Shown piece after piece: positions 1 to 22,544 of a stretch of DNA of 60,773 nucleotides. This DNA comes from an uncultured Bacilli bacterium. GTDB taxonomy: Bacteria; Bacillota_I; Bacilli_A; RF39; UBA660. The notes under the pieces were generated by a model. It had not been told where the DNA came from. It ran no database searches and worked only from the letters and a program-made list of their open reading frames with translations. The DNA is taken from contig CAJOJO010000008.1 of assembly GCA_905235045.1 (NCBI GenBank), positions 1-60,773 on the forward strand, written 5' to 3'. The stretch's first letter is position 1. Each line of letters starts with the position of its first letter. The translations under genes were made by a program, and so were the position numbers.

Positions 1-124
1 TAGCATCAAATTCATTATCACTTGGAGTATATGTTACATCTTTTGAATCTATTAATGTAGCTGCATAAACTACTCCTCCACTTATTAATAGACCAGTTAA
101 TAAACCAAATACATATTTTTTCAT
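1..124 (-). CDS. 5' end of a secreted/surface protein gene that runs off the window (N-terminal signal peptide MKKYVFGLLTGLLISGGVVYA)
   Basis: ATG at 124..122 sits downstream of an AGGGA RBS and the poly-G promoter module. The frame stays open to position 1. KK is followed by a hydrophobic h-region. Confidence 0.55.
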   Translation of the reverse strand, partial: MKKYVFGLLTGLLISGGVVYAATLIDSKDVTYTPSDNEFDA

Positions 125-147: not shown

Positions 148-178
148 ATTATACCCCCCCCCCGACATAAAAAGTCAA
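148..178 (-). promoter_or_regulatory. Sigma-A-type promoter P1 with a G10 tract in the spacer
   Basis: The minus strand reads TTGACT(178..173)-TTTTATGTC-GGGGGGGGGG-TATAAT(153..148), a 19-nt spacer, followed by leader TATAAATAGAGAGTAGGGATTAA-ATG. Confidence 0.6.
154..163 (-). repeat. Homopolymer tract, C10 on the plus strand (G10 on the coding strand)
   Basis: Counted directly in the sequence. Only two such G/C runs were noticed in the whole AT-rich window. Confidence 0.95.
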
Positions 179-7107: not shown

Positions 7108-7491
7108 TTAATCTTCATCTTCTATTTCACAACTGAAATCATCTGATAATTCGTATTTCCATTTTTTACCAGTTTTGGTTATATAGATTTCACTATCAAT
7201 GTCGATAATTTCTTTAGTAGCAGGGTTTTCAATTTCATCTTCAATATAACCACCCGTAATTAAGTCACCTAGGGTGATTGTTAATCTACCACCATCTTCA
7301 CTTGGTAGAGCAAATACATTATCAGCGCCATATGAACGAGCAGCTGCTAAAATATTATTCATTTGTGTTTCACATAATGATCCTTTATTTTGTCTTAATA
7401 TTTTTGATATTGCGGGAATTGTAATTAAACTTATTAAAGCAAGTACTACAATAACCCCAATTAATTCTGCTAAAGTAAATCCTTTTTTCAT
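7108..7491 (-). CDS. Type IV pilin-like / pseudopilin protein (prepilin N-terminal cleavage-methylation signal)
   Basis: 127 aa. MKKG|FTLAELIGVIVVLALISLI is the G-FTLxE class III signal plus a hydrophobic helix. Confidence 0.8.
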   Translation of the reverse strand: MKKGFTLAELIGVIVVLALISLITIPAISKILRQNKGSLCETQMNNILAAARSYGADNVFALPSEDGGRLTITLGDLITGGYIEDEIENPATKEIIDIDSEIYITKTGKKWKYELSDDFSCEIEDED

Positions 7492-7514: not shown

Positions 7515-7543
7515 ATAATACCACCTCCGAGCTATATTGTCAA
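7515..7543 (-). promoter_or_regulatory. Promoter P3, a paralogue of the poly-G module with an interrupted G tract
   Basis: The minus strand reads TTGACA(7543..7538)-ATATAGCTCGGAGGTGG-TATTAT(7520..7515), a 17-nt spacer, followed by leader TATGAATAGAAAGTAGGGTTTGT-ATG. Confidence 0.5.
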
Positions 7544-15923: not shown

Positions 15924-17064
15924 CTTCTATATAAACATAATCAGTTATATCTTCATATACTGTAAAAAACATCTCTACTATTATTTTACTATTATTTTCT
16001 TCAACTTTCAATTTTTTTGTGCGAATAATATACTCTTTTTCTTTTAATCTTTTTTTTATTTTGTTTTCCGCACACTCAATTGCTTTATTGGTTGCTTCTT
16101 CATAGGTGAGTTTTTGTTTAATATATTTAACTTTTTTATATGTTTCTTTAGTAATAGAAATCGGTAAAAAAAGATGTTTAAAAATATTTGTTTCACTTTT
16201 TTTAACATTATAATTTTTAATATGGTTTAATTTAAATTTAAAACTATTTATATTAAAAAAATAAATATCTTTTTCATCACTCATTATTTTTTCTTCATAA
16301 TAAATTAATGGATATTCTACTTCTACTTTATACCATACTTCACCATATACTTTACCTATCGCCACTTTATTTTCTTTTAAGTTATCATTTAAGTAAATAC
16401 TACCTGATATAATAACATCACCTTTATGAACATAGTCATTTTTATTTTTTATTATTTCACCATTTTCAGCTTCAATTTTTAATATTGTGGCGTTCTTTTT
16501 GGCAACTATATTTCTTGGTAATAAAGTATCTTTTTCATTATTTATAATTCTTTCTTCAACTCTAACAATATATTTAGTACCAATTCTTTCTATTTCTAAC
16601 CATTCTATTTTATCTTGATATTTCTTTAAAATTTTTTCTTTTACTTTATTAATATATTTATAACTCTTTTTAAGAGCCATTGGTTTAATATCATAATTTA
16701 CTAATTCTTCTCTAAGTAGTTCTCTTATATTTTTATCATTATGAATTATATCTACTTTAAAAATAATATTACTTAAAAATAGAATAAATAAAAAGCTTAT
16801 CATTAGGATTATTAATATATATTTATATTTTTTAAGAATATTTTTAATTTTGTTTATTCCGTATAATTCAACTATTTTAATCTCATATATTGTTTTTAGT
16901 TCATTTATTTTAGCATAATCATTATTATTTATAATAATATTTACTTCATTATATTTTAGATAGTCTATTTTATATAATTCAATATTTAAGGATATTAGTC
17001 TTTTAATAAATCTTTCAATATTTTTACCAGTTATATTTATTTTTATTTTATTCACGGATATCAA
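15916..17064 (-). CDS. yqfD: Sporulation protein YqfD
   Basis: 382 aa with a central TM. It follows yqfC as in Bacillus and Clostridia. Confidence 0.8.
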   Translation of the reverse strand: MISVNKIKINITGKNIERFIKRLISLNIELYKIDYLKYNEVNIIINNNDYAKINELKTIYEIKIVELYGINKIKNILKKYKYILIILMISFLFILFLSNIIFKVDIIHNDKNIRELLREELVNYDIKPMALKKSYKYINKVKEKILKKYQDKIEWLEIERIGTKYIVRVEERIINNEKDTLLPRNIVAKKNATILKIEAENGEIIKNKNDYVHKGDVIISGSIYLNDNLKENKVAIGKVYGEVWYKVEVEYPLIYYEEKIMSDEKDIYFFNINSFKFKLNHIKNYNVKKSETNIFKHLFLPISITKETYKKVKYIKQKLTYEEATNKAIECAENKIKKRLKEKEYIIRTKKLKVEENNSKIIVEMFFTVYEDITDYVYIEGE

Positions 17065-17287
17065 TTCTTTCTATTTTACCTTCAATTAATAATTCATCTT
17101 TTAATAGTTTACTAATCACTAAATTATTACCATTTATCGTAATTATCTTATTTTCGTTATAAACAATTATTTTATTATTATCAAAGTGACCAATATCACT
17201 ATAATTAACAACATTAATCTTATTATTTAGGTAAATTAATTTAAATTCGTTTTCTAATATATAGGTTCTTAATTTATCAAAAGACAT
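17048..17287 (-). CDS. yqfC: Sporulation protein YqfC (YabP/YqfC family)
   Basis: 79 aa, overlapping the yqfD start. Confidence 0.75.
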   Translation of the reverse strand: MSFDKLRTYILENEFKLIYLNNKINVVNYSDIGHFDNNKIIVYNENKIITINGNNLVISKLLKDELLIEGKIERIDIRE

Positions 17288-17346
17288 AGTATCACCTATA
17301 TAATTTTATTTTTTAAATAATAAAAAAAGAACTTTATTAAGTTCTT

Positions 17347-17799
17347 TTATTGGATTATTCCTGATGAGTCTTTAATCATTATTTTATATTCTTCAGTTAT
17401 TTCAGTATATTCGTCTTCACCTAAATCATATGTAAATGTTCCTTTATATGTTCCATCTTCTTTTATTTTAATTTCTTCAGTTTCAAATTTAATAGGTCTT
17501 TTTATTTCATGTTCATTTCTTATTGTTTTACCAAAAAGAATAATCATATATTTCACTTGAACATCTTTAAATTTTTTATCTTCTACTATTGGCTCAATAT
17601 TAAGACTATATGTTAGTTGGTTATTTTTAAATGATTTAATATTAACTGTTGTTTTAATATATCTCATAGCCATAGTACCATTTAGTTCAATAATATGTTT
17701 TTTACTTCCACCAAAGAAGATGATTAATGTACCAGTGATTAATAATACCACAATAATTAGTATTAAAATAAGTACTTTTTTTATATTTAATTTTTTCAT
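17347..17799 (-). CDS. Membrane-anchored hypothetical protein co-transcribed with the 630-aa pilin-like gene
   Basis: 150 aa with an N-terminal TM. RBS AGGAGG lies 9 nt after the upstream stop. Confidence 0.6.
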   Translation of the reverse strand: MKKLNIKKVLILILIIVVLLITGTLIIFFGGSKKHIIELNGTMAMRYIKTTVNIKSFKNNQLTYSLNIEPIVEDKKFKDVQVKYMIILFGKTIRNEHEIKRPIKFETEEIKIKEDGTYKGTFTYDLGEDEYTEITEEYKIMIKDSSGIIQ

Positions 17800-17808
17800 G
17801 CTGACCTC

Positions 17809-19701
17809 CTATTTAATAGATAACACATATTCTTTATCTAAAGTATAATGTTCATATCTCTTATTTAGTTTTACACTTGATGTTGGACTTGAGCCATCAT
17901 ATACAGTATCACTATATCTTACCCCAGTTACATTTAGAGATAATTTTTTATAGAAATCACCTTGATTGTTTTCAACAAGTTTACCAGTAACATATAAATA
18001 ACCACTATTTAATTCAAATATTGCATATAAATCACCAGTTGTATAATCTAGAAAATAATAACCAGGAGCTAATCTAGATGGATCATTTGTTTGATTCATC
18101 CTTCCAGCGAAACTTTTACCATCTGGTAAAGCACTGCTAATATTGAATGTATTAGAAGAATTTTTTTCATTAAATGATAAATCATCATAACCCCATGTTG
18201 ATATTTCTTTATATTGGATGATTGTAGTGATTTTCTTTGACGAAGTATCTAAAGATATTGAAGGCCTTACCCAATACCTTTGACCAGAATGGCTAACATA
18301 ACCATAAAGATATAAATCATCTTTTGGATATTCATATTCCCCAGCAGTAACTTTCACTGATTTAGCAGATACACCACCACTAGCACTTGTAACATAAGAA
18401 TAATAAGTTGATGATTTTAGTTCTTCTTGATTAGCATTAGTATATGTATTCAATACATAACCATCCGTTGTAAGTCCATAAACAGAAGTACTACCAGTCC
18501 CAGTATCATAATTCCATGAGTCACTTAATATGGTACTACTTGATGATATAGAATACGTAACAGCACCTGTTGTTTTATTTATTGACATATATCCTGGTAA
18601 AAGATAGTTTGTAGTTGTATAACCATTAGCACTTGTATTAAAACCTGTAAGCATTGTGTCAAAGTAAGCATAATGATTATTTACATCCTGAAAAGGTAAT
18701 TCATAAAAATTGCAATAATATACTGTAGAAGCACCAGCTGTAGTAGAACTATCACGATACATTACTGGATTAATATCTGTAGTTGTAACTAACTCCCACG
18801 CATTAGTACTTGCATTCCATTTAAATGTTTTAAGATAATAACGATAATCAGTTATTAAATCACTAGCATCATTCAGATAATAATACATAACACCTATCAC
18901 AGTTGGACTAAATCTAAATACAGGAAAAGGACTATTCCAACAGCCACCATTACTATATGTTATCTTTGCTGTATCTGTGCCTACTAAAAAGGTATCATAA
19001 GCATCCGAATTTAATTTTTTTATATCTATATACATAGTAAAATATTCCGCAGTTGCTGTTTTATAATCATATCTAAATTTCACTATATCGTTTGGAATAG
19101 TAACAGTATTTACTTTAAACATTGGTCCTGATGATATTGATTTAATACCAGTTGCTAACTCTTCAAATGATTTATTTTCATTTATTTCGTATCCTCTACT
19201 CTTAATAGCATTTGCTATCTTTTCTTTGCCAGTTATTATTTCTTCATTACAAGCATTTATATCTTCCACACATTTGTTTGTAACACTTATTATTCCATCA
19301 ACAGTAATGCCATCGCATATTCCATCTCCTATGGTAGCTTCTTTTTGATTTAATTCTTTTTTAGCATACCATTTCCCGTTATCAATACAAATTGCTGATT
19401 TATTATCTGTTGTGATTAACACCATACCATGCTCTATTGAACCTTTATAGCTTAATTTCTCATAATCATCTATTTGCTTTCCATTACTAAATTCTAATAA
19501 TCGATTATTTTCTGCATCTTGCATATTTATTTGATAATAATAATTAGCAGCTTCAGCAATCCCTTGCACACTTGCTTTTAAAGCACCTTTTTGAGCTTTT
19601 TCAATCACATCACTTATTAATGGTATTGATATTAATGTAACTATTGCTATCAATACTATTACCGCTAATAATTCAATTAACGTAAATCCTTTTTTCTTCA
19701 T
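17809..19701 (-). CDS. Large type IV pilin-like surface protein (prepilin signal plus ~520-aa Y/T/S-rich domain of unknown fold)
   Basis: 630 aa. MKKKG|FTLIELLAVIVLIAIVTLISIPL is the prepilin signal. No family was recognised for the remainder. Confidence 0.8.
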   Translation of the reverse strand: MKKKGFTLIELLAVIVLIAIVTLISIPLISDVIEKAQKGALKASVQGIAEAANYYYQINMQDAENNRLLEFSNGKQIDDYEKLSYKGSIEHGMVLITTDNKSAICIDNGKWYAKKELNQKEATIGDGICDGITVDGIISVTNKCVEDINACNEEIITGKEKIANAIKSRGYEINENKSFEELATGIKSISSGPMFKVNTVTIPNDIVKFRYDYKTATAEYFTMYIDIKKLNSDAYDTFLVGTDTAKITYSNGGCWNSPFPVFRFSPTVIGVMYYYLNDASDLITDYRYYLKTFKWNASTNAWELVTTTDINPVMYRDSSTTAGASTVYYCNFYELPFQDVNNHYAYFDTMLTGFNTSANGYTTTNYLLPGYMSINKTTGAVTYSISSSSTILSDSWNYDTGTGSTSVYGLTTDGYVLNTYTNANQEELKSSTYYSYVTSASGGVSAKSVKVTAGEYEYPKDDLYLYGYVSHSGQRYWVRPSISLDTSSKKITTIIQYKEISTWGYDDLSFNEKNSSNTFNISSALPDGKSFAGRMNQTNDPSRLAPGYYFLDYTTGDLYAIFELNSGYLYVTGKLVENNQGDFYKKLSLNVTGVRYSDTVYDGSSPTSSVKLNKRYEHYTLDKEYVLSIK

Positions 19702-19724
19702 ATAACTCCTACTTTCTACTTATA

Positions 19725-19754
19725 ATTATACCCCCCCCCGACAGGCCTTGTCAA
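19725..19754 (-). promoter_or_regulatory. Sigma-A-type promoter P2 with a G9 tract in the spacer
   Basis: The minus strand reads TTGACA(19754..19749)-AGGCCTGTC-GGGGGGGGG-TATAAT(19730..19725), an 18-nt spacer, followed by leader TATAAGTAGAAAGTAGGAGTTAT-ATG. Confidence 0.65.
19731..19739 (-). repeat. Homopolymer tract, C9 on the plus strand (G9 on the coding strand)
   Basis: Counted directly in the sequence. Confidence 0.95.
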
Positions 19755-19768
19755 ACAAAAAAAGAAAA

Positions 19769-20308
19769 CTATTCGTTTTCTATAAAATCATCATTTACAT
19801 TTTCATCTATTTCATCCATTACAGTATCGTCTACATCATCTTCAATTAAGTCCCATGGTTCTTCATCATCTTCAATATTTATTTTTACTTTTGTCTCACC
19901 AATTACTTCAATTCCTAATTCTTTTTCAATGTCAAAACTAATATTACCATTATCTTCAATATGAACACCAGTACAATTTGGTTGTTTTAAGGATCTAACA
20001 ATTATATCAGTATCACTAGTTAATTCAACATCATCTTTTATTTTTACATTAAATAAATTATTATAAGTTACCTTTTTATTAACAACTGTTGTTTTAGAAT
20101 CATTATCATATGAATACCAAATATTTACATCATATGATCCTTCAACGCCAATTTTACTACCAGATTTATAACCTTTAAAATTATGATTTATCACCCAACA
20201 ACCTAATACTGTAGTTGGTAATTCATTTGTTTCTATACTATAATTATCTTTAAAATATTTTTTACCTTTACCAACAATCGCTTTTGTTACAATTTCTTTG
20301 AATGCCAC
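19769..20308 (-). CDS. cotE: Outer spore coat morphogenetic protein CotE
   Basis: 179 aa with a GTG start. It appears colinear with my recollection of B. subtilis CotE (EIVTKAIVGKGKK..., WVINH, DVNIWYSY, LKQPNC, VIGETKV) and has an acidic tail. Confidence 0.8.
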   Translation of the reverse strand: MAFKEIVTKAIVGKGKKYFKDNYSIETNELPTTVLGCWVINHNFKGYKSGSKIGVEGSYDVNIWYSYDNDSKTTVVNKKVTYNNLFNVKIKDDVELTSDTDIIVRSLKQPNCTGVHIEDNGNISFDIEKELGIEVIGETKVKINIEDDEEPWDLIEDDVDDTVMDEIDENVNDDFIENE

Positions 20309-20403
20309 TTAAATCACCTCTTACTCTAATGTATTCAATTACTAGTCAAATGTTTACAAAAAAAATGTACTTAAATAGTACATTTTATGATAAATCATTA
20401 TCG

Positions 20404-20697
20404 TTATAAACCCTTATGGTATTCAGTAATTTTTTCTTGTAATAAAGTATTAAGTTTATCATTATAGGAACTCATAACATATAGTTCTTCTAAAATAACT
20501 TTATCACCGACATAATTTTCTTTTACTTTTCTAATTTTCTTTCTTTCTTCTTCTTGAAGTTTAAATACTTCTTCAAATAAAGCTACTTTCTCACTATCAG
20601 GTGCATCATTAAATAGTAATTTTATTTGTTTCATAAATAATTCTCTTTGGTTATAAACTACATTAATCATATCAATTAAATTAACATTTTCACTCAT
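20404..20697 (-). CDS. Hypothetical small protein downstream of the oapA-like gene
   Basis: 97 aa from the ATG with an AGGTGGTGA RBS. Confidence 0.55.
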   Translation of the reverse strand: MSENVNLIDMINVVYNQRELFMKQIKLLFNDAPDSEKVALFEEVFKLQEEERKKIRKVKENYVGDKVILEELYVMSSYNDKLNTLLQEKITEYHKGL

Positions 20698-20744
20698 ACA
20701 TATCACCACCTATATAATAACACAAAAACTAAGAAATATTACTT

Positions 20745-21314
20745 TTAATTTTTTATTTTATAAAAACAGGAAATTACTTTAGCAAATTTATATAAAATAA
20801 TATTACTTTTATTTATAGCAAAACTTTTCCCCAAAGCTTTTCCACCAATAGTTAATGCCGCAATAATAGCCGAAATAACTAAAACCGTAAAAAATGCATC
20901 AAAGTGATAATGAGCGGATATATTAAGGGCAATTATAGAACCAGCGCCACCTGATATAATCCCACATACATCTCCTACTACGTCGTTACAAAAACTTGAT
21001 ACTAATGCCGCATTTTGTTTAAATTTTACAGCTATATCAGCTCCTTTTATTTTTCTTGAATTCATTGAATTAAAAGGAACAATATCAGCGGCTGTTACAG
21101 CAACCCCAATAATATCAAAGATAATACCAATAATAATAAAAATAACTAAAACAATTAAACCAATTATAATATTAACATTAGGAATAACTGATTCTGATAA
21201 CATACTAAATATAAAGGAAAGCATAAAAGCAGTTATCGTTATTTCAATAATCCATTTATAATTTGTAAATGCTGTTTTATCTTTTTCTAGTTGTTTTTTA
21301 AAAACCTTTTTCAT
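20745..21314 (-). CDS. 4-TM membrane protein, OapA-like (OLE-associated protein A candidate)
   Basis: 189 aa with four predicted TMs and a DVVGD (DxxxD) motif in TM3. It lies directly downstream of the large structured RNA. The OapA assignment is from memory of the family, not from a search. Confidence 0.55.
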   Translation of the reverse strand: MKKVFKKQLEKDKTAFTNYKWIIEITITAFMLSFIFSMLSESVIPNVNIIIGLIVLVIFIIIGIIFDIIGVAVTAADIVPFNSMNSRKIKGADIAVKFKQNAALVSSFCNDVVGDVCGIISGGAGSIIALNISAHYHFDAFFTVLVISAIIAALTIGGKALGKSFAINKSNIILYKFAKVISCFYKIKN

Positions 21315-21327
21315 AATTTTCTCCTAT

Positions 21328-21942
21328 AAAAAAAAGAAATAATTTCTTTTATAAATAATAATGGCGATTAATATAGTTAACTTTATGCCTTAGGTCAAGT
21401 AGAATTTCTCTAGTTTTTACTTATCGTTACCAATAAGCGGTTCCCCTTTAAAAAAACCAATATATTGTCACCAAATATATGACTTGATTACCACTTAGTA
21501 CATACTGCAATCCTACACTAACTCCACTCTAGGAATTTTCTTCAACAACTATTACTATTAGTTCTTTTTTGCAAATACAATTTCATATAGCAATAACAGT
21601 AATCATTTGGCCTAAATCATACTATCTGTCTATAATCCCAAGTATTCACGCAAGACAAGCTACGCTACTCATAAGTTGCCCCACGAAGTAGGTTTAATCC
21701 TAAATCGTCACAAGTCCATCAACTTACGTGTATAGGCTTATAACAAGTTCAGGTCTCCACGACAGTTGGGTCAGTATCGTATGCCATTACGGCCGCCCAA
21801 GTTGTCTTTCTTCCAGCACTCACCCTAAACTGGGCGTATAAAGCAAGCACCAGAAGCTTCACAGATGTGCTCTTTAATGGATTTTTAGCCCCATCTTCAT
21901 AGTAATTAAGTTGACTAGAATAATGTGCCATTACTTATTTAT
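21328..21942 (-). ncRNA. Large (~600 nt) structured non-coding RNA, OLE-like
   Basis: An 830-nt gap holds only a spurious 60-aa ORF. It has its own TTGACA-17-TATATT promoter. The core (about 21640..21900) is visibly GC-enriched against AT-rich surroundings. A 13-bp closing helix pairs 21940..21927 (AAAUAAGUAAUGGC) with 21365..21353 (GCCAUUAUUAUUU). Internal hairpins are present, e.g. GACAACTTGGG...CCCAACTGTC. A terminator lies at 21328..21351. Confidence 0.55.
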
Positions 21943-21948
21943 ATGTAA

Positions 21949-21977
21949 AATATATCAAAAAATATGTGTATTGTCAA
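21949..21977 (-). promoter_or_regulatory. Promoter of the large ncRNA
   Basis: The minus strand reads TTGACA(21977..21972)-ATACACATATTTTTTGA-TATATT(21954..21949). Confidence 0.55.
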
Positions 21978-22108
21978 TTATCATAACTTTAATTATTCCT
22001 TATTTTATAAAGCTATTTTTATATTTAATTAATGAAAAACTAAACATATAAGTAATATAGTTTCTAATTTAACTATTTTATAATAAATATTAAATAATAT
22101 TGTAATTC

Positions 22109-22123
22109 CTACCAATTTGGTAG
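22109..22123 (+). promoter_or_regulatory. Candidate Rrf2 operator: a 7-1-7 palindrome abutting the -10 of the suf operon promoter
   Basis: CTACCAA-T-TTGGTAG is immediately followed by TATAAT (22124..22129), with TTGTAA 18 nt upstream. Confidence 0.4.
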
Positions 22124-22145
22124 TATAATTGTTTATGGTGATATT

Positions 22146-22544
22146 ATGCGTATTTCAACAAAAGGACGATATACTTTAGTTATTATGTTAGACTTAGCTA
22201 AGGAATATAAAAACAATTGCTATGTTAGTTTAAAAGAAATAGCTTTAAAGGAAAATATATCGTTAAAATATTTAGAAAAGTTAATGCTCACTTTAAATAA
22301 AAGTGACTATTTAATATCTTTACGAGGTGAACATGGAGGCTATAAATTAAAGTATGAACCTAGTCATTATAAAATTGGGGATATTTTAAAACTTGCCGAA
22401 GGTAATATTGATGTTACTGATTGTGTTTCTAAAGATCATATTTGTCCTAATAAACATAATTGTGATACTTTTCCTTTATGGAAAGAATTAAATGATTTAA
22501 TAAATGATTATTTAGATAGTAAAACACTAGAAGACTATATATAG
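22146..22544 (+). CDS. Rrf2-family transcriptional regulator (IscR/CymR-like)
   Basis: 132 aa with an N-terminal wHTH (MRISTKGRYTL...) and three clustered Cys (CVSKDHICPNKHNC). Confidence 0.85.
   Translation: MRISTKGRYTLVIMLDLAKEYKNNCYVSLKEIALKENISLKYLEKLMLTLNKSDYLISLRGEHGGYKLKYEPSHYKIGDILKLAEGNIDVTDCVSKDHICPNKHNCDTFPLWKELNDLINDYLDSKTLEDYI

Follow-up and report, generated by a model that had tools for sequence, protein, structure and literature searches.

The contig CAJOJO010000008.1 of an uncultured Bacilli bacterium (assembly GCA_905235045.1) carries, immediately upstream of a gene for a large prepilin-type protein, an uninterrupted run of nine guanines situated between the −35 and −10 hexamers of a consensus promoter, and the question that this locus raises is whether the run is a fixed component of that promoter or the adjustable part of a switch. 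We analyzed the complete contig (60,773 nt, hereafter the window) alongside related contigs from other assemblies, denoted here by L numbers. The sequence comparisons reported below indicate that the G9 tract is probably the length-variable element of a sigma-A-type promoter cassette, and that this cassette belongs to a family of slipped-strand promoter switches resembling the vlp system of Mycoplasma.

Read on the minus strand, the promoter in question (c1) consists of a −35 hexamer TTGACA (19749..19754) and a −10 hexamer TATAAT (19725..19730), both recognized by direct reading and by a promoter scan, separated by an 18-nt spacer (19731..19748) in which direct reading and run counts identify AGGCCTGTC followed by the G9 tract (19731-19739). 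A 23-nt leader, TATAAGTAGAAAGTAGGAGTTAT (19702..19724), contains the ribosome-binding site (RBS) AGGAG at 19706-19710, is common to the cassette family described below and leads to an ATG at 19701. This minus-strand reading confirms the first-pass annotation of the window, which had reported a G9 run between consensus hexamers with a spacer of 18 nt. Within the 6 kb covered by the promoter scan (16500-22500), c1 is the sole match at all 12 of the 12 hexamer positions; the total of promoter-like matches in that interval equals the expectation from shuffling, and the scan alone provides no evidence. The orthologous locus on L016, whose pilin is 62 % identical and whose gene order is syntenic with the window (cotE, pilin, a 148-aa open reading frame (ORF), yabP), presents TTGACA, a 17-nt spacer without a G-run (ATGCATATTGTAAGAAG), TATAAT and 23 nt to the ATG, and the orthologue on L017/L018 (45 % identity), where the gene upstream of the pilin differs from cotE, presents TTGACT, an 18-nt spacer with an A7 run (AAATATAATAAAAAAAGC), TATAAT and again 23 nt to the ATG. 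More broadly, the −35 is kept as TTGAC[A/T] in orthologues and paralogues, L016, L017 and every paralogous cassette share the −10 TATAAT, and the distance from the −10 to the ATG is 23 nt in every cassette copy. Because the hexamers and the leader length are conserved in orthologues while the spacer sequence diverges, c1 is predicted to be a functional sigma-A-type promoter, and the earlier placement of the tract inside a promoter spacer is borne out by the same conservation in L016 and L017/L018. Judged against these orthologues, the G-run is a lineage-specific filling of the spacer. A TG extended −10 occurs in none of the cassettes, which should therefore depend on their −35 element and on its spacing; a related promoter on L027 (TGTATAAT) lacks a −35.

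The window has a G+C content of 26.8 % and contains two G/C runs longer than 5 nt, which read on the forward strand as C9 at 19731-19739 and C10 at 154-163; base composition predicts about 0.004 runs of 9 nt or more in a sequence of this length. A two-colour poly-G or assembly artefact at c1 was considered and ruled out: the tract is internal to its contig and reads G9 in four independent assemblies from four samples. An Rfam search of the window returned an OLE RNA only, and nothing at the cassettes.

The second long run lies in a second copy of the cassette (c2, 148..178, minus strand; run count and direct reading), which consists of TTGACT (173-178), TTTTATGTC, G10 (154-163) and TATAAT (148-153), with a spacer of 19 nt, and is followed by the leader TATAAATAGAGAGTAGGGATTAA and an ATG at 122-124. 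The ORF driven by c2 (1..124, minus strand, by ORF reading) begins MKKYVFGLLTGLLISGGVVYAATLIDSKDVTYTPSD and is the 5′ end of a gene for a 158-aa protein of a secreted family; it runs off the window, and the complete gene is found on another contig (P0134, L028:10001-10477). A third copy (c3, 7515..7543, minus strand, by direct reading) comprises TTGACA (7538-7543), the 17-nt spacer ATATAGCTCGGAGGTGG (7521-7537) and TATTAT (7515-7520), with 23 nt to the ATG, and is identical in L028. Its spacer is made up of the parts ATATAGCTC-GGAGGTGG, the latter being an interrupted G-rich stretch at the position of the G-run; with its G-rich stretch interrupted, c3 should be unable to slip and looks like a locked version of the promoter. 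It precedes a small prepilin-type gene of 127 aa (7108..7491, minus strand; N-terminus MKKGFTLAELIGVIV), the product of which scores 18.4 bits against PF07963, under the curated cut-off of 21.2. The first-pass annotation had treated c1 as a single locus; its description of c1 itself stands, and c2, c3 and the multigene family had escaped it.

Across the species, at least nine poly-G copies can be counted (c1, c2, three on L029, two on L031 and two on L035), to which the interrupted c3 is added. The cassette has the consensus TTGAC[A/T], 9 nt, Gn, (T)ATAAT, a 23-nt leader with an RBS, and ATG. As in vlp, paralogous genes each possess their own conserved, tract-bearing promoter. Besides c1 to c3, they occur ahead of two genes between rarA and xerD (locus 3, on L031, a contig that shares its sample of origin with the window), where 3a reads AGTGTGTTC before a G10 tract and 3b reads TTTGCTGTT before G9 or G10; in a tandem array of four genes before ligA (locus 4), where ATATGTGTC, AATTATGTC and ATTTATGCC each precede a tract and the tract states are G10-ATAAT, G10-TATAAT and G9-TATAAT; and ahead of a single gene flanked by genes for a PIG-L protein and a glycosyltransferase (locus 5), where AGTTATGTC precedes G10 or G11. 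Locus 6, upstream of a second large pilin-like gene (MKKKGFTL / MNKKGFTL; L035:16065 and L038:6099), reads TTGACA-ATC-G9-TATATATTACAATATAAT with G9 in both assemblies, and its geometry is atypical, giving 12 nt or 24 nt and no normal spacer. A tyrosine recombinase encoded beside locus 3 was examined as a possible invertase of the vsa/vpma type and rejected, since it lies in housekeeping, xerD-like synteny (deoB, spoIIM); such an invertase is further contradicted by every gene having its own promoter.

The tracts, which are G9-G11 across the copies, exceed the approximately 8 nt at which a homopolymer is able to slip, and the distribution of run lengths sets them apart from other G/C runs. In 118,866 non-redundant bases there are 386 runs of 3 nt, 86 of 4 nt and 7 of 5 nt, none of 6-8 nt, and then three of 9 nt and six of 10 nt. 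All nine long runs lie within 15 nt after a TTGAC[A/T], a situation expected by chance at about 0.5 % of positions, and eight of the nine sit in a canonical −35/−10 spacer. At these eight cassette-form loci the segment from the −35 to the G-run is exactly 9 nt long and variable in sequence, and length variation is restricted to the G-run and its 3′ edge. The spacers in the 23 complete cassette-form observations, counted with GATAAT as the −10 in forms lacking the T after the run, measure 18 nt (n = 11) or 19 nt (n = 12) and never 17 or 20; one tally, which omits the 3a cassette of L034, reads 11 and 11. An 18/19-only pattern is what tracts held at a functional boundary would be expected to yield, and it departs from the earlier suggestion that 17 nt would be the optimal state of the switch.

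A scan of a genome collection for TGTC-G7+-TATAATTA gave 8 matches, none from the species of the window, and similar promoters occur sporadically elsewhere. One, in the rumen Firmicutes genome RUG293 (L008, 3337-3359), reads TTGAAA-ATTTGTC-G8-TGT-TATAAT, with a spacer of 18 nt, before a lipoprotein gene; in two Nomurabacteria species of the candidate phyla radiation, orthologous secreted-protein genes have G7 and G9 before TATAAT (L012:2187-2205 and L013:4072-4092). A scan of Joint Genome Institute (JGI) metagenomes with a tract-independent leader pattern retrieved only three unrelated genes, encoding a TnpB-like protein, WhiA and an acidic protein, which indicates that the organism is absent from that collection.

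Comparison between strains reveals length differences at several of these tracts. At 3b, four assemblies with identical flanks divide into G10 (L031, L032) and G9 (L033, L034); at locus 5, three assemblies read G10-ATAAT (L035), G10-TATAAT (L036) and G11-ATAAT (L037), and one further contig starts inside the tract; and the last gene of locus 4 has G9 in L029 and G10 in L030. Near-clonal pairs differ at the tract and almost nowhere else: over 9,963 bp, L035 and L037 show a single mismatch and a single gap, the latter being the G10/G11 tract; over 6,297 bp, L032 and L034 show four mismatches and one gap, which is the 3b tract; and over 10,574 bp, L032 and L033 show four mismatches and two gaps, one of them the tract. 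When tract-edge changes and the L029/L030 pair are included, 4 of 8 G tracts are length-variable, versus 4 of 121 A/T runs of at least 7 nt (Fisher p = 4e-4); when only pure changes in G count are admitted, the figures are 2/8 and 4/121 (p = 0.045). An assembler-specific bias in the tract calls was looked for and not seen, contigs named k141_, k87_ and scaffold_ each showing both states.

Two features of the assemblies accompany these tracts. Forms without the T after the run, in which G10 or G11 is followed directly by ATAAT and the −10 becomes GATAAT, recur at three loci (L014:10894, L015:10894, L029:695, L035:9963 and L037:8945) and may reflect a T-to-G change that lengthens the run, loss of the T, gene conversion among cassettes or a miscalled base after the run. 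Contigs also break at or near the cassettes: L033 and L038 begin at or inside a tract, L003 and L004 end about 630 nt into the pilin gene, and the start of the window, L014 and L015 end 100-150 nt into the c2 gene. These repeated breaks suggest coding regions that are strain-variable or repeated, heterogeneity of the tract, or poor coverage of it.

The products encoded behind the cassettes are surface or secreted proteins, with two or three copies ahead of prepilin-type proteins and at least six ahead of small secreted or anchored proteins. The c1 gene (17809..19701, minus strand) encodes a 630-aa prepilin-type protein that joins an N-terminal type IV pilin module to a beta-rich C-terminal region. 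Its N-terminus matches PF07963 (E 1.8e-6, 27.7 bits, cut-off 21.2) and is a class III signal peptide with G/FTLIE and Glu5 (MKKKG-FTLIELLAVIVLIAIV); solved type IV pilins were also matched, weakly, at their N-termini in a sequence comparison. The AlphaFold2 model places a helix at residues 8-60 and strands at 67-141, with a predicted local distance difference test (pLDDT) score of about 90 over residues 8-141, and thus displays the long N-terminal alpha-helix on a beta-sheet that is characteristic of type IV pilins; the C-terminal part is beta-rich and modelled with low confidence, and a Foldseek search of the model against the PDB was uninformative, with template modelling scores (TM-scores) of 0.1-0.2. 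Only two full-length relatives were found. The pilin-like N-terminal module itself, about 130 aa long, recurs fused to many C-terminal domains (BspA-type leucine-rich repeats, Fn3, DUF1566 and others) and constitutes a large, unannotated family in metagenome-assembled genomes (MAGs) of uncultured Bacilli and Tenericutes. The pilin gene is followed after 9 nt by a co-oriented ORF (17347..17799, minus strand) for a 150-aa protein with an N-terminal hydrophobic membrane anchor, syntenic in L016 and L017 and without a family match in the domain search, which on this spacing is presumably co-transcribed with it; the products named in the first-pass annotation, a prepilin-type and a membrane-anchored protein, are thus supported. 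Genes for a prepilin peptidase (Peptidase_A24) and a PilC-like protein (T2SSF) are present on L031, and pilin machinery is attributed to the host on the basis of this peptidase and platform pair.

The small secreted proteins form a family of their own. A profile of the N-terminus of the c2 protein retrieved 23 small proteins (158-216 aa) that have some 55 N-terminal residues in common, comprising a signal peptide or anchor followed by ATLIDSKDVTYTPSDxxFxVSNVExALxELY, and which continue into mutually unrelated C-terminal domains, an arrangement of conserved N-terminus and variable C-terminus that is also vlp-like. Sequence searches of the family against Pfam, PHROGs and the PDB gave one F5/8 type C (lectin) domain, in a single member, and otherwise only a phage family of unknown function, weakly matched. 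At E <= 1e-3, the family defined by its ATLIDSKDVTYTPSD...ALxELY N-terminus extends to 2,355 clusters at 50 % identity and is unannotated. Neither a lipobox cysteine nor internal repeats were found in the family sequences, which therefore lack the lipoprotein and tandem-repeat characters of vlp products.

The architecture, the existence of a family, the bimodal run lengths, the confinement of change to the run and the one-base differences between near-clonal strains are together what a slipped-strand switch would lead one to expect. Slipped-strand mispairing in replication would add or remove one G, and this change would shift the −35/−10 spacing between 18 and 19 bp and alter the binding of RNA polymerase; every gene would in this way flip at random, in a heritable manner and independently of the others, from a stronger to a weaker or silent state and back, and the outcome would be a combinatorial variation of the cell surface, as in Mycoplasma hyorhinis vlp. 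The activity of sigma-70/sigma-A promoters depends on spacer length, and it is from this general dependence that we infer an effect of tract length on transcription. The 18-bp form would be the more active state and the 19-bp form weak or off, in which case the pilin operon would be on in all four samples and most genes of the small family off in any one sample. Length changes would be frequent and reversible within a clone, of which the contig breaks at tracts give the one indirect hint, and the c1 copy, with its invariant G9 and its spacer of 18, is presumed to switch as well.

Several observations weigh against such a switch, and several favor a G-run that is a fixed, selected part of the promoter, setting its strength or binding a shared regulator, the length differences then being slow mutation without switching at the level of the population. 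With 18 bp the spacer departs from the textbook optimum, and a 17-bp state was never seen here. The comparison of tract lengths across strains that had been proposed for c1 gave G9 in all 4 assemblies, covering at least three strains 2-5 single-nucleotide polymorphisms (SNPs) per kb apart, of which L003 and L004 carry substitutions and a deletion of 1 nt immediately past the −10; 3a is likewise G10 in 4/4, the strains compared at the two loci being 2-7 SNPs per kb apart, and if the tract slipped freely and were neutral, one would expect to see it vary. At c2, all four assemblies have G10 and differ by one base, the following T, which is present in the window and L028 and absent in L014 and L015; this difference follows strain clades and so has the look of one event passed on by descent, not of rapid switching. 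The two spacer classes would also fit purifying selection, and the interrupted G-rich spacer of c3 raises the possibility that G-richness itself is selected. The sample, moreover, is small (8 tracts, 2-4 strains each), and the lengths are consensus calls from short-read metagenomes in which G9-G11 may be off by one base. The poly-T of Mycoplasma agalactiae vpma, like the tracts described here a homopolymer that directly precedes the −10 in the promoter of a variable surface protein, was found experimentally not to mediate switching (PMC2268961), so that architecture alone is not proof and a precedent exists for a tract that does not switch. We nevertheless judge a fixed promoter element to be unlikely, since strains that are otherwise almost the same diverge at the tract, length changes affect G tracts more frequently than A/T runs, orthologous promoters manage without a G-run, which is thus not required for promoter function, and the absence of 6-8-nt runs beside nine of 9-10 nt is a signature of selection acting on mutable lengths and not on G content. 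A more prosaic source of the differences would be sequencing or assembly noise at G homopolymers, including a miscalled T after the run, with the tracts themselves stable. All the data are Illumina-type metagenome assemblies, the T-less forms at three loci could be miscalls of the base after the run, and contigs do break at tracts; but the calls are reproducible (8/8 identical at c1 and 3a), tract state is independent of assembler type as judged from contig names, and the T-less c2 is the same in two different assemblies, all of which makes noise an improbable explanation. The earlier proposal of transcriptional phase variation is accordingly retained for the family, where sister loci differ in length, whereas the invariant tract of c1, by the refuting condition set in that annotation, counts against this particular copy.

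The position of the pilin operon suggests another source of transcription. The gene upstream of c1 is cotE (19769..20308, minus strand; PF10628, E 4.7e-51), and in L022-L025, close relatives that share its 90 % CotE cluster, a hairpin terminator comes straight after cotE, with yabP next (L022:4540-4631; L026 is too short to show the junction). In the window, the pilin and 150-aa pair with its promoter sits between the cotE stop codon and the terminator of cotE, a hairpin with a U-run (AGAACUUAAUAAAGUUCU, 17322..17348, minus strand, −9.8 kcal/mol, z = −2.45), the junctions lying at 17322-17348 and 19755-19771; because relatives have cotE directly before the same hairpin, the pilin operon is best described as an accessory insertion. 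The same site in L027 holds a gene of the small secreted family behind a promoter without a G-run, and the region downstream of cotE looks like a hotspot for surface-protein cassettes. That the G-run might be a scar of the insertion was considered and ruled out, since the insertion is also present in L016, where no G-run accompanies it, and the run is situated 15 nt within the junction. No hairpin was found between cotE and c1, and since cotE thus lacks a terminator ahead of c1, read-through from cotE is possible, a further point against tract-dependent control of this operon. Were the operon transcribed mostly in this way, during sporulation in the mother cell, c1 would not be its main driver and the effect of the tract would be small. 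We consider this highly improbable, given that the perfect 12/12 promoter has been conserved among orthologues, L017 with its other upstream gene included, and that the same cassette stands ahead of genes at other loci with unrelated upstream genes; read-through can, in any case, coexist with a switch.

The closest parallel to the proposed switch is M. hyorhinis vlp, whose family members are expressed combinatorially. Both systems comprise paralogous surface genes with a conserved promoter and 5′ region and a homopolymer in the spacer (poly(A) in vlp), and in both the N-terminus of the product is conserved and its C-terminal part variable. Spacer insertions and deletions are the established switch for M. 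hyorhinis vlp and for the related single-gene cases Mycoplasma arthritidis maa2 and Mycoplasma mycoides vmm (PMC2268961), whereas switching of the cassettes described here is proposed from sequence comparison. Here poly-G takes the place of poly-A, in a genome with a G+C content of about 26 %, and the host, unlike the wall-less mollicute host of vlp, has sporulation genes and pilin machinery. Unlike the vlp lipoproteins, the products have a signal-peptidase-I-like VYA-A site or a prepilin G-FTLIE site without a lipobox, and no tandem-repeat size variation; and their genes are located at no fewer than five scattered chromosomal sites and in one tandem array, with one cassette serving two unrelated protein classes. 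The system would work like vlp, but since its products lack lipobox and repeats, it does not belong to the Vlp protein family.

Neisseria meningitidis porA (poly-G) and opc (poly-C) and the poly-C tract of Bordetella pertussis fim are promoter tracts in which one-base changes alter the spacing and grade expression. They share with the cassettes described here a G/C homopolymer between the −35 region and the −10 of a surface or fimbrial gene, but they are single proteobacterial genes without a cassette family, and in them within-strain length variation and its effect on expression have been measured, whereas the differences reported here are between strain consensus sequences. The poly-G/C phasomes of Campylobacter and Helicobacter (PMC8355987, PMC2823697) likewise combine an AT-rich genome with long G/C runs that are rare, bimodal and concentrated at surface contingency genes; their tracts are mostly intragenic and act by frameshift, whereas all nine described here follow a −35-like hexamer ahead of a gene and derive from a single cassette. 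Within the same broad group as our host, heritable stochastic switching of surface or motility functions, which we propose here by inference, is represented by slipped-strand mispairing within the swrA coding sequence of Bacillus subtilis (PMC5386303), by coding-tract slippage at a hotspot of flagellar-gene phase variation in Paenibacillus (PMC9941203) and by invertible promoters in Clostridioides difficile (PMC11868660). Unlike the cassettes, these cases in spore-formers are intragenic frameshifts or site-specific inversions, and our literature searches found no promoter-spacer homopolymer family in a spore-former.

The mechanism is classical, and the lineage and the protein families are new. 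The host carries the sporulation genes cotE, yabP, yqfD, spoIIM and gpr and belongs to an abundant, uncultured gut or rumen lineage, close relatives of which are labelled Bacilli, Tenericutes or Lactobacillales bacterium and in which polynucleotide phosphorylase (PNPase) relatives with 89-94 % identity abound. With slightly more doubt than confidence, we advance the broader reading that these loci form a genome-wide phasome built from one portable cassette (poly-G promoter, leader and secretion signal) that would have spread to five or more chromosomal sites, and in which toggling between 18 and 19 bp would generate combinatorial surface variation in two unrelated protein classes, pilin-anchored and small secreted (some lectin-type), of a commensal, spore-gene-bearing member of the Bacilli. 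To our knowledge, invertible promoters (Bacteroides, C. difficile) have been the near-exclusive focus of work on phase variation in gut commensals. If the broader reading is correct, simple-repeat contingency loci, thought typical of pathogens and mollicutes, would also operate in gut Firmicutes by means other than invertons, and would shape surface diversity in gut and rumen Firmicutes; they would be detectable in metagenome assemblies through bimodal G/C run lengths, and would point to surface proteins under fluctuating selection (phage, host, substrate binding), among them an unannotated family of more than 2,000 sequence clusters. As sites of contig breaks and of consensus differences, the tracts also matter for MAG assembly and strain tracking.

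Two further observations concern the surroundings of c1 and c2. Upstream of cotE, the window encodes a full-length OLE RNA (RF01071, 392 bits; 21345-21947, minus strand), here in a non-extremophile gut or rumen lineage of low-GC Bacilli, followed by genes for a 189-aa membrane protein (20745-21314) and a 101-aa ORF (20404-20709) that lie immediately ahead of cotE and occupy the position expected of OLE-associated proteins. Between pnp and c2, an ORF with a MuF C-terminal domain (PF18819; 201-527, minus strand) is preceded, up to about position 830, by short ORFs and an in-frame stop, and resembles a broken-off piece of a gene for a phage protein or polymorphic toxin.

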